Source: a virus (lineage: Duplodnaviria > Caudoviricetes). Taken from it: 24,281 nt of DNA. The notes under the pieces were generated by a model. The model searched no databases, had not been told where the DNA came from, and saw nothing but the letters and a program-made list of their open reading frames with translations. How positions within the stretch are numbered: the first letter of the stretch is position 1; every line of letters begins with the position of its first letter. The position numbers were made by a program, and so were the translations under genes. Below are positions 1 through 14,933 of this stretch, piece by piece. The stretch spans positions 1-24,281 of the IMG/VR virus record IMGVR_UViG_3300020204_000364; one strand, written 5' to 3'.

Positions 1-839
1 TTAGGATCTCTAAATTTTGTTTTACCCGATTTGTCCGTCTCTGCAATAGGTGCAGAACCAGCACCTGGAGGCTTGGCAGGACCGGTGCCGCCACCTGGAG
101 GCTTGGCAGGACCGCCACCGCCTGGAGGCTTGGCAGGACCGGTGCCGCCACCTGGAGGCTTGGCAGGACCGCCACCGCCTGGCGGTCTTCCGCCTGGCGG
201 TCTTAATCTTGGTGTTCTATCCAACATATTAGCTAAAACCATCGCTGCTAAAGCTGCACCTATTGCAAGTATAATATTAGAATATTCTTTTAATTTGTCG
301 AAAAATTCTTTGACTGTATCAAAAACTGCACCAATACTATTAAATGTTTCTCTCAATTTTTCAATATCAATATTCGCTAATACGGCGGTAAGACTTGCAA
401 AAAGTCCTGTAAATAATACACCGAGCGGGCCCATTCCTGTAGCTCGTCTGATACCAGATGATACTCTGGTTAAAGCACCGCGCACTAATTCTCGTTTACG
501 CTCTCGCCTTTCTTCAGCAGCCCTTTGTTCATCGTTTCTTAGAGATTCGGTATCTTTTTGTTCACCTGCCATTGTTTTCTGCATTTCTACCAAAGCTTCT
601 CTGGTAAAAGATGCGACTTTGCTTATATAAAGATATATTTCTGATCTAAATGAATTGAATGATTCTTGGGTTACATAACCTGAAGATGCTCGGCCGTCGG
701 CTCTAGCTGGACTACCTGCTACAACCCCTCTGGTGCTAACCATTCGATAGTTTTGTTCCATATCATGAAAGCGATTGGTTCTTTCATTATATGTTATCGA
801 GGGGCCCATCTGCTGGGCAACATCTGCTAGACTGGGCAT
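1..839 (-). CDS. Tape-measure/baseplate-hub-like membrane-helix protein, 5' part only (runs off the left edge; absent from the ORF track)
   Basis: Translated by hand. The ATG at 839-837 overlaps the upstream TAA (TAATG). The frame is open for 279 codons to the window edge: MPSLADVAQQMGPSITYNERTNRFHD...QRAAEERRERKRELVRGAL...GPLGVLFTGLFASLTAVLANID...IILAIGAALAAMVLANML...RPPGG/PAKPPGGG repeats...KTKFRDP. It has a charged coiled-coil, two hydrophobic helices and a Pro/Gly linker, and lies downstream of gp26/gp51. Confidence 0.7.
   Translation of the reverse strand, partial: MPSLADVAQQMGPSITYNERTNRFHDMEQNYRMVSTRGVVAGSPARADGRASSGYVTQESFNSFRSEIYLYISKVASFTREALVEMQKTMAGEQKDTESLRNDEQRAAEERRERKRELVRGALTRVSSGIRRATGMGPLGVLFTGLFASLTAVLANIDIEKLRETFNSIGAVFDTVKEFFDKLKEYSNIILAIGAALAAMVLANMLDRTPRLRPPGGRPPGGGGPAKPPGGGTGPAKPPGGGGPAKPPGGGTGPAKPPGAGSAPIAETDKSGKTKFRDP
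64..204. repeat. GC-rich coding tandem repeat: 57-bp unit x2 (each a 30-bp plus a 27-bp subunit), then 15-bp unit x2
   Basis: 64-120 is identical to 121-177, and the subunits share cctggaggcttggcaggacc. ccgcctggcggtctt occurs at 175-189 and 190-204. All units are multiples of 3 and encode RPPGG-RPPGG-GGPAKPPGGGTGPAKPPGG... on the minus strand. Confidence 0.95.
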
Positions 840-2281
840 TATGCTTCTACCCTTTCGCGGATGATTATAGGTTGAACTTGTGTTATTGTCTCAGTTGCAC
901 CCATTCCTGATGTGGGCATTGATGCAACGGCCTCAGGTGAAGTTATTGGCGCCGATTGATCTGGCGCTGGTTGACCTGGCACTGGTTGACCTGGCGCTGC
1001 TGTTGTTGGCGCTGCTGCTGCTGGTGCTGCTGCCACCATTGTTGGTGGTCTTTGTTGACCAGGAGCAAATGCAACTTGTGATCTAGCTTGTGTTGGTGAT
1101 GGTTGCGGCGTAGCACCAGCAGTTTGTGTTGCCGCACCCAATCTATAATAAGATGCACCTGATGTACCATATGCATCTGCACCATCTCTACCCTGAGCGA
1201 GATTTCTTGCCCCACCGGGACCAAGTAAGTGTGCAGCAGCTAGAAAACCCGCAATTTGCTCATTTGAACTTTCAGCATTAATCACACCTAAGCGATTTAA
1301 AGCACGAAAATTCTGATTAGTATATCTAACCATTGTATCTTCTTGTAATTGTGGATTATTTAAGAAAGCTTGCTTTCCACCTTCAATCGTCCAATTTGAT
1401 GGATTATCTAATTGTCTATTAGATGTAACTCCTCGTCTAACAAGACCCATATCTATTAGTGCCATATAACCAAATTGATATTTTCCAAGAAATCCTATAG
1501 TATTAACTGCTTGATAATTTGAATTACTTTCTCTTTGTCCAATTCGTTGAGCATATGCCGCATAATCTATTGGTAAGCTTGAATTTGAAGGTATAGGTGC
1601 TCCGCCGGCCGGTGCGCCTTCAGGTATTCTTTGCGATGAACCCGGTGGTGCACTAGGTGCTTGCCCAGGTACACCAGTTGGTTCTGGTTCATCACCTCGA
1701 CCAAAAATATAGGCAGCAATTCCTGCGGCCGCAGTTGCACCAGCAGCCAGTAATCTAAGTCTAGGATTACGCATTATACTTGCTATACCTGCTAGTAATC
1801 CCCGTACAGCACTAGTTATTACTCTCATACCAGTTCTCAATACCGATGCAACAATTCTACCAATCATTGATGTCAAAAAAGTTAGAATTGTTTTTATGGC
1901 AGAAAATATTTTCTTCAAAACTAGTGATATTGCACGTAATATACCATCAAGAATTGAAGTGTTCTCTCTTTCTTCTGGTGCTTGTTCAGGCATATCACGA
2001 ATTGGCATACCTTGTTCTCTGCGATCTTCATCAGCCGAGCGGCGTACCCGAATTAATAATTCTCTCTGTTTATTTTTTTCATTGTTTATACCACGAAGCG
2101 AGTTTATCATGCTTCTAAATGTACTAGTTACCTGAGCCACTGGTGAAGTCATACCAGATGATCGAGTCATGCTACCAGATTGCGGGGGCGTCATTATGGA
2201 AGTTACAACACTTGCGACAGCATTTACCGCTCGGTTATCCCGAGATAGGTATCTTTCTGTAGCTTCCATTAGTGATGCCAT
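839..2281 (-). CDS. Tail/tape-measure-like protein with a lysozyme-like (lytic transglycosylase/muramidase) domain
   Basis: 480 aa. N-terminal coiled-coil, then long amphipathic/hydrophobic helices (ILDGILRAISLVLKKIFSAIKTIL...LLAAGATAAAGIAAYIFG) and a Pro/Gly linker. The lysozyme-superfamily motifs are RES (putative catalytic Glu)...YQAVNTIGFLGKYQF...FLNNPQLQE...LAAAHLLGPGGA. The tail is Ala/Pro/Gln-rich. Confidence 0.7.
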   Translation of the reverse strand: MASLMEATERYLSRDNRAVNAVASVVTSIMTPPQSGSMTRSSGMTSPVAQVTSTFRSMINSLRGINNEKNKQRELLIRVRRSADEDRREQGMPIRDMPEQAPEERENTSILDGILRAISLVLKKIFSAIKTILTFLTSMIGRIVASVLRTGMRVITSAVRGLLAGIASIMRNPRLRLLAAGATAAAGIAAYIFGRGDEPEPTGVPGQAPSAPPGSSQRIPEGAPAGGAPIPSNSSLPIDYAAYAQRIGQRESNSNYQAVNTIGFLGKYQFGYMALIDMGLVRRGVTSNRQLDNPSNWTIEGGKQAFLNNPQLQEDTMVRYTNQNFRALNRLGVINAESSNEQIAGFLAAAHLLGPGGARNLAQGRDGADAYGTSGASYYRLGAATQTAGATPQPSPTQARSQVAFAPGQQRPPTMVAAAPAAAAPTTAAPGQPVPGQPAPDQSAPITSPEAVASMPTSGMGATETITQVQPIIIRERVEA

Positions 2282-2457
2282 TAATTTTCTCTTTTAGCCT
2301 TTTCTTTTTCGATATAGTCTATCAACATCTTAACATATAAGTCCCTCTCCCAAGGTATCATATTTTCTATCTCAGTCAGACTATACTTGTGGTGCTGCAT
2401 GAGAGAAAAATTCAATGAATAATAATTACCCAGTGTATTATGAGAGAGGGCTATCAA
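2281..2457 (-). CDS. gp51: gp51-like short baseplate hub assembly frame (58 aa from TTG 2457, or 39 aa from ATG 2400); probably the C-terminal extension of gp26 via a -1 frameshift
   Basis: Absent from the ORF track. It translates as LIALSHNTLGNYYSLNFSLMQHHKYSLTEIENMIPWERDLYVKMLIDYIEKEKAKREN*. MQHHKYSLTEIENMIPWER is the signature of the short gp51 annotated after gp26 in cyanophage-like T4 phages. Its TAA overlaps the next ATG. Confidence 0.85.
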   Translation of the reverse strand: MIALSHNTLGNYYSLNFSLMQHHKYSLTEIENMIPWERDLYVKMLIDYIEKEKAKREN

Positions 2458-3170
2458 AAAAAATCAGCGAGTCCTTTTAATGTGATGGTATCTTCTTGGC
2501 CGCAGCCGGCGCACTTATATGTGACTGTATGTTGTAGCTTTGGCATGGTCTCAAAAAATTTCATAATTTCTATAAATTGCTTATTGCTAAGAGACCCAAT
2601 GAAGTTTTTAATTTCTTCTTCATTCTCAGGTTCATAAACTTCTTCATCATCATAAACACATTCAATGCATTTTGATATCATATCAATTTCATCTGACTTT
2701 TCAGATGACAATGTGGCCTTAATATCCGCAAGAGTTGGATATTTCATCTTTAGAATAAGCTTGTCGGTTAGCGGCACAGTCATTCTATGATTAGGATCGA
2801 ATTCAACCTGAATAGCATCAAGATCAATCTCAACCTTTGTCACGGCATCACAAGCTTCACCCTTGTAGTTGACACCATCAACATGTCTGTAGCTTAGTGT
2901 AACCTTTTCGCCTGCCGATTTGGCACGAATTTGAAGAAACAGATATTCAACATCAAATGATGGAATCTTTGTGATATCAAATCCTTCTGTCAATATGCAG
3001 CTTGAAATGACATCAAACATTGCACGTTGCATATGATCAGAATCTTTAGATTCCATTGCAATCAGAAGTGTCTTTTCTTCCTTAACCACAAATGGTCGGA
3101 AGACAATTTCTCTTTTATCAGATGGCAAAATCACCGAAAAGGTAGGTACAGCAATCTTAGGTAAAGGCAT
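2454..3170 (-). CDS. gp26: T4-like baseplate hub assembly protein, gp26 family (T4_baseplate-type)
   Basis: 238 aa, with MPLPKIAVPTFSVILPS...FRPFVVKEEKTLLIAMES, FDVEYLFLQIRAKSAGE, MKYPTL, FFETMPKL, a C-terminal CxxC and a GLADFF end. SD GAGGAG lies upstream. Confidence 0.9.
   Translation of the reverse strand: MPLPKIAVPTFSVILPSDKREIVFRPFVVKEEKTLLIAMESKDSDHMQRAMFDVISSCILTEGFDITKIPSFDVEYLFLQIRAKSAGEKVTLSYRHVDGVNYKGEACDAVTKVEIDLDAIQVEFDPNHRMTVPLTDKLILKMKYPTLADIKATLSSEKSDEIDMISKCIECVYDDEEVYEPENEEEIKNFIGSLSNKQFIEIMKFFETMPKLQHTVTYKCAGCGQEDTITLKGLADFF
2457..2463 (-). other. Putative -1 frameshift slippery heptamer U UUU UUU
   Basis: The minus strand reads GCT GAT TTT TTT TGA (8 T, 2463-2456). The heptamer is in X XXY YYZ phase immediately before the gp26 stop, and the -1 frame is the gp51-like frame. 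Confidence 0.7.
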
Positions 3171-3185
3171 AATTAACTCCTCACG

Positions 3186-4097
3186 TTAAAATAGGGCGCC
3201 CCGTTGCGCCGTCGCACTGTTTCTGAATATTACTCCAGTTTGCTGGGTAAGGCCACGAATTCCACCACCCAGACCCTGTCTAGCAAATAGGGATACAAGT
3301 GGCGAAAATCTATCAAGAGCATTGACCGCACCGCGAAGCAGAGATTCAAGACCATATAGATTCTCAAATGGCAGCGCATCAGGATGTTTTTCTGTCGAGA
3401 TAAAGTAACGCATTTGCACAGTCATCTTAGCGGCACCATCGGCCGACCAGTCAAGATCAACATCATTGATCGCTATCGGATATGCTTCTTCTAATCTGAT
3501 TTTGTATTGCGGAAAAATCACTCTATCATTTCTTGATTCAAATTCATTTCGATTAAGTGGATTGAATGCATCAATAACATCATTGATTAGTGATTGAGTA
3601 TCACCCCTAATGAATGATGATGCGATACTTATCGCAGATGGATTTTGAAATTTAGGTGATTCAGCAAATTGCATGATTTCCACACCACCAATCATCTCAT
3701 CATAATAGGTGGAATCAAACCCACCTTGCTTTGGTGCCTTACCACCACCACGCCTATAGCTTGCAAGGCCACCAGCAGACACAGCCATATCCTGCCATGC
3801 CATAAAAATCTCACGCTCAATCATATTTTCGCTGAGTAATACCTGCAATGTCATTGGCTGATAGCTAAAGGCATACGGAATCATTCTTTCCGGGCCATGA
3901 TATCTTTGCACAATGGTATCTAAGCTACGTGCGGGTAGTGATGCTCGCTCAATTCTAAGCGGAAGAAATGATGTATTGAAAAATCCACCCAGTCTTGACG
4001 GTAGAGATATCATCACCGAGAAGTAATTTGGTTTACCAATACCTCTCTTATTAACTTCGGCGGTAAATTCATTAATATTAAATCTACGGTTTGCCAT
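3186..4097 (-). CDS. gp54: Baseplate tail-tube initiator, gp54-like (gp19 tail-tube fold)
   Basis: 303 aa, with N-terminal FNINEF...GIGKPNYFSV, ASLPARSL, EREIFMAWQD and the tube-fold motif LEEAYPIAINDVDLDWS...MTVQMRY. Its position between gp2 and gp26 fits. Confidence 0.7.
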   Translation of the reverse strand: MANRRFNINEFTAEVNKRGIGKPNYFSVMISLPSRLGGFFNTSFLPLRIERASLPARSLDTIVQRYHGPERMIPYAFSYQPMTLQVLLSENMIEREIFMAWQDMAVSAGGLASYRRGGGKAPKQGGFDSTYYDEMIGGVEIMQFAESPKFQNPSAISIASSFIRGDTQSLINDVIDAFNPLNRNEFESRNDRVIFPQYKIRLEEAYPIAINDVDLDWSADGAAKMTVQMRYFISTEKHPDALPFENLYGLESLLRGAVNALDRFSPLVSLFARQGLGGGIRGLTQQTGVIFRNSATAQRGALF

Positions 4098-12452: not shown

Positions 12453-14933
12453 ATGGCAATTTCAGGCGCCGAAGAAATCTTCAAGAAAATATCACCTCTT
12501 ATCGAGGCACAATTTCCTGCATTTCTTCGCGATGAAGGGCCGCGCTTTGTTTCATTTCTAAAAGCATATTATGAATTTCTAGAGCAGTCTGGCCAGACCG
12601 TAGATGTAACACGCAGTCTAGTTGAATATCAAGATATTGATCGTACATTGGATTCTTTTGTGGAATATTTCCGCAAAGAATTTATGTTGAATATACCAAA
12701 AGATGTGCTAGCCGACAAGAGATTGTTGGTAAAGCATATTAGAGATTTTTATAGAACAAGAGGGTCAAAATTTTCATATGACTTTCTATTCTATGCATTA
12801 TTCAATAAACAGATTGAGATTATCTATCCTGGCGATTACATTCTAAGAGCATCTGATGGTCGTTGGGTTAAAGAGACAATTCTTCGTGTTGGTAATCCAT
12901 TTTCAATTCTACCAAAAAATTTTGATGGTAGAAATATAGTTGGTACTCAATCTGGCGCTACGGCTCGTGTGCAAAAAGTTACACAAGTTGTTGTTTTAGG
13001 ACATCCGCTATTTGAGCTGCTTGTTGAAAACGTAGTCGGATCATTTGTTGACGGTGAAACGGTTACCGATGATCTAGGTAATACAGCAACCATTACATCA
13101 GCATTTGGTAGCTTGATTGGTATTGAAGAAGTTGTAGATTCCGGAGCGTTTCATCAATCGGGTGATGATGTTGTTATCACATCATCTGGCGCTACTGCCG
13201 CGGCCAGGGTGGCTGCCACAAATGATCAAGGACCTGTAACATTTCGTATCAATAGAGGTGGTAGTGGTTATCGTTTAGGTCAAACTGTCATTGCAATAGA
13301 AGGTGGATCCGGTACTGGCGCGGCCGCTGTGGTTACATCTCTTTCTAATACAACATTTGTTAGTCTGAATACAAATCAAATTGGTGCCTTACAAAATGTT
13401 GTTCTCAATACAGGATCTACATTTGTTTCTCTTGGTACTAATTCTGCTGCTGTATCGGCAAATCTTGCTGCGGCTAATATATCATCACAGCTAGTGACAT
13501 CATTGAATTTTGCAAATTCAGTTGCTGGTACAATTAATGCAATATCCGTAACAAGTGTTGGTAAAAATTATGTTCCTGAATTACCAACAGTAACTGTTAC
13601 AGATCAGGTTGTATTTGAGCAAGCTTTACCTGGTCAAAATGGACAATTTAAGGGTGGTGATGCTGTCATTGCTGTCATACGAGCACCAGGTGCAATTACA
13701 CGACTTGAGGTAATTTCATCCGATGCATCGTTTGATAAATTTGCTGATGCAATTGTTGTCAATTCTCGCGGTGTAGCACCAACTATTGATACTAATACAG
13801 ATCAAGCTGGTATTACAAGACACACAATCAGAAATACAACATACAATGCTGATATCAAACCAATTATCTCAGGCGTTATCAATCAGCCGGGTAGATATAT
13901 TGATACCAAAGGTTTTCTAAGCTGGAATATGAGATTACAAGATAATGATTTCTATCAAGAATATTCATATCTAATTCGAGTGACCGAGATTGTTGACAAA
14001 TACCGCGATGTAGTTAAGAGAGTATTACATCCTGCGGGTTCTAAGATGTTTGGTAGCTATCAGTTTGTATCAAATACTGTATTGACGCACAATCATGGTT
14101 TTGTTTATAGTCAACAAGCACTACTACCAATACCATTAAATGTTAATAAAGCAATTCTTATGTCTGCAAATGTATCTGTAGACGCACAGGATAGTCAGCC
14201 AGTAGGACTAACATTTAATTCGTCTGGTAAAAGAATGTATGTTATTGGTACAAATCAAGATAAGGTATTTCAATATAAACTAGCAACAGCTTTTGATGTG
14301 TCTACAGCAACTTATATGTCTAAGAGCATATCGATTGCAAATACATCTACATCTGGCCCAGGTGATACAGAACCACGTGATGTTCAGTTTAATCCTGAGG
14401 GCAACACAATGTATATTGTTGGTACAACTAGAGATACTGTTTATCAATATTCATTATCAACTGCTTGGGATGTATCAACTGTAACATATTCATCAAAAAG
14501 TAAAGATGTTTCTGCACAGGAGACAAATCCTCAGTCGCTTGCATTTAGCGATGATGGTTATAAGATGTATATTCTTGGTTCAACAAATGACAGCATATTT
14601 CAATACACACTATCAATACCATGGGATGTATCAACTGCAACTTATGCATCTAAATTCTTATCTGTTACGTCGCAGGAAAATAGTCCATTAGCTATGGCAT
14701 TTAGTAATGACGGTAAGAAGGTTCTTGTTGTCGGTAGCACAAATGATACTGTTTATCAATATTCATTATCAACTGCTTGGGATGTGTCAACGGGCTCTTT
14801 TGACAGTAAAAGTTTATATGTTGGTAATCAAGAGGCCGCACCTCATGCATTAGCATTAAGCACCGATCAAACCAAAATGTTTATTCTTGGTACAGCAAGT
14901 GATATAGTTTATACCTATCAAAGGTCTACCTAG
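12453..14933 (+). CDS. gp7: Baseplate wedge initiator, gp7-like, with a C-terminal beta-propeller
   Basis: 826 aa between gp6 and gp8, with LIEAQFPAF...FVSFLKAYYEFLE, LVKHIRDFYRTRGS..SYDFLF..LF, ILRASDGRW and LQDNDFYQEYSY...VKRVLHPAGSKMFG. The last ~255 aa are five ~52-aa repeats. Confidence 0.8.
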   Translation: MAISGAEEIFKKISPLIEAQFPAFLRDEGPRFVSFLKAYYEFLEQSGQTVDVTRSLVEYQDIDRTLDSFVEYFRKEFMLNIPKDVLADKRLLVKHIRDFYRTRGSKFSYDFLFYALFNKQIEIIYPGDYILRASDGRWVKETILRVGNPFSILPKNFDGRNIVGTQSGATARVQKVTQVVVLGHPLFELLVENVVGSFVDGETVTDDLGNTATITSAFGSLIGIEEVVDSGAFHQSGDDVVITSSGATAAARVAATNDQGPVTFRINRGGSGYRLGQTVIAIEGGSGTGAAAVVTSLSNTTFVSLNTNQIGALQNVVLNTGSTFVSLGTNSAAVSANLAAANISSQLVTSLNFANSVAGTINAISVTSVGKNYVPELPTVTVTDQVVFEQALPGQNGQFKGGDAVIAVIRAPGAITRLEVISSDASFDKFADAIVVNSRGVAPTIDTNTDQAGITRHTIRNTTYNADIKPIISGVINQPGRYIDTKGFLSWNMRLQDNDFYQEYSYLIRVTEIVDKYRDVVKRVLHPAGSKMFGSYQFVSNTVLTHNHGFVYSQQALLPIPLNVNKAILMSANVSVDAQDSQPVGLTFNSSGKRMYVIGTNQDKVFQYKLATAFDVSTATYMSKSISIANTSTSGPGDTEPRDVQFNPEGNTMYIVGTTRDTVYQYSLSTAWDVSTVTYSSKSKDVSAQETNPQSLAFSDDGYKMYILGSTNDSIFQYTLSIPWDVSTATYASKFLSVTSQENSPLAMAFSNDGKKVLVVGSTNDTVYQYSLSTAWDVSTGSFDSKSLYVGNQEAAPHALALSTDQTKMFILGTASDIVYTYQRST
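14160..14930 (+). repeat. Five ~52-aa beta-propeller-type repeats, including a perfect 41-bp direct repeat
   Basis: Consensus P..L.FS.DG.KMY..G..ND.VYQY.LSTAWDVST. gatactgtttatcaatattcattatcaactgcttgggatgt occurs at 14433-14473 and 14745-14785, 312 nt (2 repeats) apart. Confidence 0.9.

Follow-up and report, generated by a model that had tools for sequence, protein, structure and literature searches.

The window analysed here is a 24,281-base stretch of an uncultured T4-like phage; its IMG/VR record is a virus contig, 14% complete, and the runs containing that record are lake-water metagenomes. The feature under study lies on the minus strand among T4-like tail and baseplate genes. A gp26-like gene (positions 2454 to 3170, minus strand) encodes a protein of 238 residues, the predicted short chaperone form (G, or TAC-N), whose whole length is spanned by the PF12322 / phrog_150 domain (E 1e-61 and 1e-66, respectively). 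As an earlier note on this DNA had described, the gene ends in GAT TTT TTT TGA, with a slippery heptamer, U UUU UUU (2457 to 2463, minus strand), in X XXY YYZ phase and abutting the stop codon TGA (2456-2454). The heptamer is part of an 8-U run, and neither strand of the 24,281 bases has another T-run of at least eight. The -1 frame holds 58 codons (2281 to 2457, minus strand) for a gp51-like C-terminal domain (T, or TAC-C), and the gp51 signature ascribed to it is indeed present, with phrog_634 (baseplate hub assembly catalyst) matching residues 2-57 at E 1e-25. On the phrog_150 profile, gp26 covers positions 5-232 and the -1 frame matches positions 237-276. Because a TGA closes the -1 frame immediately before the heptamer, a shift would be possible only on the heptamer, and its predicted product is a long form of 238 + 58 = 296 residues. 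The site and reading frames of the earlier note are thus borne out, and the strand, unstated there, is the minus strand. Contigs from two runs, both possibly the source of this very DNA, agree across positions 2200-2700 with zero indels or differences. The record holds no second gp26/gp51 copy, which at 14% completeness does not imply absence from the phage.

Upstream of gp26, in the same operon, lies a gp54/gp19-like gene of the tail-tube family (3186 to 4097, minus strand; phrog_45, E 7e-20). Downstream, a gene of 480 codons (839 to 2281, minus strand; phrog_27932, E 3e-36) is a candidate tape-measure or ejection protein. The stop/start overlap TAATG that was proposed to couple it to the -1 frame is present, but its description as tape-measure-like holds only as a lead: the nearest named Atlas cluster, T4_Tape_measure, scores a sub-threshold 0.87, so that a tape-measure identity is plausible and unproven. 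The protein has a lysozyme-like domain at residues 239-402, and BLASTP found zero similarity between it and either the window's gp5 or the next gene. It is poor in lysine (7 K to 39 R), unlike gp26 (22 K to 6 R). Elsewhere, HTVC008M, Cr30 and phiM12 have an annotated tape-measure or tape-measure-like gene two genes further on, and no tape measure gene is annotated after the pair in the records of VP-1, PhiW-14, Kuja and K361.

This arrangement very probably reflects a -1 ribosomal frameshift of the G/GT type, by which the gp26 gene is predicted to yield both a 238-residue and a 296-residue protein. According to this proposal, a minority of ribosomes would slip back one base on U UUU UUU before the gp26 stop and so produce, beside the 238-residue protein, a 296-residue protein with a gp51-like tail. 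The slippage would be ribosomal and would occur in vivo, and a Shine-Dalgarno (SD)-like element upstream, together with the adjacent stop codon, may promote it. One point counts against a frameshift here: in E. coli, U_UUU_UUU is much less shift-prone than A_AAA_AAG, according to the portion of PMC5009743 available to us. What the comparisons below show, at the level of sequence, is a fixed -1 frame, slippery codons constrained at silent sites, no conserved start for the -1 frame, and a two-gene equivalent in T4-type phages. The earlier note's equation of gp26 and a gp26-51 fusion with the G/GT pair gains support from each of these and from the predicted fold.

We assembled 257 loci, comprising 240 metagenomic loci, 16 cultured phages and the window, of which 12 were dropped at contig ends, leaving 245 that could be scored. 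The metagenomic loci are redundant, were found via one conserved gp26 motif and are mostly aquatic relatives; the main dereplication, at 70%, gave 76 loci, and counts ignore phylogeny. In 243 of the 245 loci the gp51 core is encoded in the -1 frame, and in none of them in another frame, as expected if the relative frame is fixed; three of the 243 have weak profile scores (4.3-12.6 bits). In VP-1 and Kuja, the two loci lacking a profile match, the -1 frame is open for 59 and 64 codons, and a -1 ORF is found at the junction in all 16 cultured phages examined. By tblastn, the frame was found in 549 phage records.

The slippery heptamer is conserved as well, with T TTT TTN occurring in 240 of the 245 loci, or 71 of 76 after dereplication at 70%. 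Its second Phe-position codon is TTC in 139 of the 240 loci, TTT in 99, and TTG and TTA in one each. In the dereplicated set, the first Phe codon is TTT in 71/71 loci with the FF pair, where gp26 codon usage predicts 45.6, and the preceding codon has T as its third base in 69/70, against 42.4 expected. At a conserved internal FF of gp26, used as a control, the corresponding counts are 25/59 and 11/22. The silent-site result is unchanged at 95% and 60% dereplication. In four loci (L037, L038, L070 and L078) the gp26 stop comes 8-12 codons after the slippery site, and thus the site is conserved independently of the position of the stop. In the window's clade, the stop directly follows TTT TTT in all 17 members. 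The five exceptions to the heptamer are three Vibrio phages and two loci with A or G as the first base. The Vibrio phages, VP-1 (L086), Kuja (L089) and K361 (L092), have only 4-5 T's in place of a canonical heptamer and keep the -1 ORF; their gp26 genes end in GTT TTT, CTT TTT and CTT TTC, respectively, and two of them have TAATG. These phages possibly use single-tRNA slippage or coupled initiation.

We also looked for stimulators around the site. The window has a weak SD-like sequence, AAGGA (2472 to 2476, minus strand), as a candidate; it ends 8 nt before the heptamer and has an anti-SD pairing energy of -5.3 kcal/mol. This spacing is just outside the 9-14 nt given for stimulatory SD sequences of -1 shifts in the part of PMC5009743 at hand. 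Across the 76 loci, SD-like pairing upstream of the heptamer is found in 88%, and it is stronger than under synonymous recoding in 58/76 (mean -7.25 versus -5.31 kcal/mol; Wilcoxon p 4e-8, with kinship ignored). In 26/76 loci a GGAGG has its end exactly 10 nt upstream of the heptamer, inside the 9-14 nt range; the motif is found nowhere else in the 25 nt scanned. The codons that spell it are skewed accordingly: Glu232 is GAG rather than GAA by 34:14, against a background of 28%, and Gly233 codons end in a purine by 44:26, against 33%; among five informative control Glu columns, one shares the GAG excess (20:17). Loci without a nearby start have GAGG at 9-10 nt as often (15/30) as loci with one (24/46), which argues against a role in initiation. 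On the 3' side, the region is more stable than recoded sequence in 59/76 relatives, by a mean of -3.6 kcal/mol compared with -0.5 to -1.0 kcal/mol in control windows of gp26, which suggests a modest structural signal in the relatives; no excess structure was found in the window's own 3' region (z +0.19).

Slippage could in principle take place during transcription, with the polymerase adding one U on the T-run and the lengthened mRNA being translated normally, which would give a nearly identical protein product. The window, with its 8 T's, suits this mechanism, as does the retention of TTT as the second Phe codon in all 17 members of its close clade when TTC is commonest elsewhere. Six T's are short for polymerase slippage, however, and the run has merely that length in 109 of 159 loci, reaching at least eight in only 21. 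Moreover, the X XXY YYZ register of the run relative to the reading frame is maintained, and the upstream SD-like element, apparently under selection, sits at a ribosomal spacing. We therefore regard slippage by the polymerase as improbable.

A second possibility is that gp51 is translated on its own as a small protein, by coupled re-initiation either at a start overlapping the gp26 stop or at Met20. Many GenBank records annotate short gp51 as a gene of its own, and SD sequences near gene ends can serve coupling, as the available text of PMC5009743 states. In the window, a TTG (2457-2455) overlaps the gp26 stop as TTGA and might be used for coupled initiation in this phage. No ATG precedes codon 20 (2400-2398), and the sequence upstream of that ATG shows no anti-SD pairing (-0.9 kcal/mol), so the earlier description of a frame lacking a clear SD stands. 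We scanned for ATG, GTG and TTG between the nearest upstream stop and a point 8 codons beyond the slippery site. A start overlaps the gp26 stop in 26/76 loci (18 with ATG, 8 with GTG or TTG) and is absent in 50/76, among them four members of the window's own clade, and 30/76 loci have no start codon at all near the junction; an independent start is therefore not conserved. An SD for gp51 is not conserved either, with SD-like pairing before the Met in 7% of 67 loci; the corresponding shares are 66% for gp26 starts (n = 71) and 21% for random positions. Met20 itself, the Met of the MQHH motif, is retained in 54/76 loci, and conservation extends upstream of it as had been anticipated (L9 in 72, F17 in 68, N16 in 63 and H6 in 55 of 76), the domain profile having been seeded solely from the part after Met20. 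Re-initiation would also leave unexplained the silent-site constraint on T TTT and the in-frame fusion that makes up T4 gp51. Given the overlapping starts in 26/76 loci and the window's TTG, some coupled initiation may occur here, but as the main route to gp51 we judge it unlikely. Since the frameshift reading makes one gene the source of two proteins, the annotated short gp51 is likely to be the tail of the frameshift product and not an independent gene.

The third explanation, a sequencing or assembly error in the homopolymer or a recent inactivating mutation of a single 296-codon gene, draws on the homopolymeric site and on a few database proteins that join the two parts in frame (P0003, P0009, P0011, P0014-16 and P0019), and is refuted to near certainty by the conserved offset (-1 in 243/245 loci, a -1 ORF in all 16 cultured phages), by contigs of two runs free of indels, and by the in-frame proteins coming from single-contig records, several garbled at the junction. 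Our survey of such in-frame fusions in the protein database gave 19 matches among 30 candidates, 11 of which were read; we discarded them as evidence because all are single-contig records and several look like indel errors.

Some T4-type phages divide the two products between two genes. We examined five such Straboviridae (T4, Berthold, GAP161, avDM1 and Makalu003), and in 5/5 the gp51 protein carries the domain in frame (12.4-30.5 bits), whereas gp26 is without it (at most 1.0 bit). T4 thus has gp26 (208 residues) and gp51 (249 residues) as two separate genes, where the window has one gene and a -1 frame. T4 gp26 matches the gp26 profile at 89.9 bits and has neither the slippery end nor the gp51 domain, its terminal codons being GAG TTC TTT GAG TTA CTA TAA, unlike those of the window. 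T4 gp51 consists of a diverged gp26-like part (15.7 bits) and a domain of the -1-frame type at residues 200-246, whose score of 22.5 bits was equalled by 0/2000 shuffles. T4 gp26 and gp51 can be read as a duplicated G/GT pair, and the present comparison supports this. T4 gp26 and gp51 are listed as hub assembly chaperones in the accessible part of PMC3004832, and the Berthold record (GenBank MN709128.1) labels gp26 and gp51 as 'tape measure protein assembly chaperone'. In GAP161 (L259, 2501-3794), gp51 and gp26 are neighbours on the same strand (gp54-gp51-gp26-gp25), the layout expected after a tandem duplication; T4 and the three other two-gene phages have them in divergent orientation.

The fold predicted for gp26 (pLDDT 87, pTM 0.81) points in the same direction. 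The top Foldseek row for the model is the tail assembly chaperone of HK97, 2ob9 (probability 0.94, E 0.33), and VIA-align superposes gp26 residues 1-91 on 2ob9 with Z 7.1 and an rmsd of 4.6 over 85 aligned residues. In the VIA-align ranking, 2ob9 follows 3fgx (Z 8.0) and 3klu (7.5), presumably tail assembly chaperones too, and precedes 5ir0 (5.6) and the rest (at most 4.5). With moderate confidence, then, the model gives the gp26 N-terminus a tail-assembly-chaperone fold, the HK97 match lying below Z 8 with a Foldseek E of 0.33. When 18 -1-frame proteins were scanned against Pfam, nothing connected them with lambda T, P2 E' or other T domains, and searching PDB sequences by HMM brought up no relative.

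In lambda, the chaperone frameshift takes place at G GGA AAG, and that of P2 E/E' at a U-run; the site in the window is a U-run, unlike that of lambda. The likeness to lambda gpG/gpGT lies in a -1 shift near the end of the chaperone gene that adds a C-terminal domain, and in an N-terminal fold like that of HK97 2ob9. The gp26 short form differs from lambda gpG in that, at 238 residues, it has about 145 residues beyond the chaperone fold. For lambda, the available part of PMC5009743, published in 2016, describes a short form that acts on the tape measure protein, and an extra domain that acts on the tube protein. By analogy, the short form here would coat the tape measure protein, and the long form's extra domain would recruit the tail tube protein. 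The same portion of PMC5009743 calls the G-T frameshift conserved 'except T4'. Predicted -1 shifts in the chaperone genes of Pakpunavirus/Vandenendeviridae and Andersonviridae, different families of myophage, likewise use a U-rich site, GTTTTT, and come from genome comparison (PMC12846349, in the part available).

The earlier note knew of no report establishing the frameshift for T4-like phages; one apparently exists. Vladimirov, Gautam and Davidson (in Virology, 2022) are credited with identifying these genes and reportedly found frameshifting conserved in several T4-like groups, with T4 said to use genes 26 and 51. To judge from the passages of later papers available to us, the T4-like chaperone frameshift appears to have been described in print since that 2022 study: PMC12846349 credits it with poly-T -1 slippery sites in the TAC-N genes of T4-like phages, and PMC10885494 with the observation that some T4-like phages instead have two genes, one short and one long and fused. 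PMC12859696 and PMC11526630 go no further than citing it. Both of the credited points, the poly-T sites and the short and long fused genes, are reproduced here. The gene family is the same, and the present case differs in being that of an uncultured phage from a clade with the stop right after the 8-U run. In the literature searched, which did not extend to the text of the 2022 paper, we found no bench test of a T4-like chaperone frameshift. As the frameshift is apparently in print since 2022, what is gained here is a further example and the detail of the SD-like element.

That element, the upstream SD-like GGAGG, may be the sole part that is unreported; our literature search returned no report of it, and the text or supplements of the 2022 paper might cover it. 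Taking the observations together, a tentative joint reading, which we find possible but fall short of favouring, is that members of the T4 superfamily other than T4 use an internal SD stimulator of the dnaX/IS type, in which the L-E-G codons are chosen to form a GGAGG with its end 10 nt upstream of the U-heptamer, often accompanied by 3' structure, and that in the window's clade an 8-U run at the stop would take the place of part of this. If true, and absent from the 2022 paper, this would be a conserved stimulator for frameshifting of phage tail chaperones and would offer a direct handle on the ratio of short to long form in cyanophages. The frameshift reading itself would correct an annotation, that of the short 'gp51' or hypothetical gene, in the T4-like genomes of cyanophages and of Pelagibacter, Sinorhizobium, Caulobacter, Aeromonas and Vibrio phages examined.

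Several further features of the window were observed. Right 3' of the gp26 stop lies a motif, CTCTCTC(TC)A (window 2440-2456), shared with close relatives (L003-L029); it corresponds to Leu-Ser-His codons of the -1 frame, and its nucleotides are conserved in most members of the window's clade. Beyond the 480-codon gene, a second coupled gene (3 to 839, minus strand) encodes at least 279 residues, is cut by the end of the window and has no family match. Both coupled genes contain Pro/Gly-rich tandem repeats with units of 15-57 nt (62-204 and 947-1033). Finally, a degenerate 156-nt repeat in 2.5 copies (14409-14791, plus strand) lies inside the gene for an 826-residue baseplate wedge protein.
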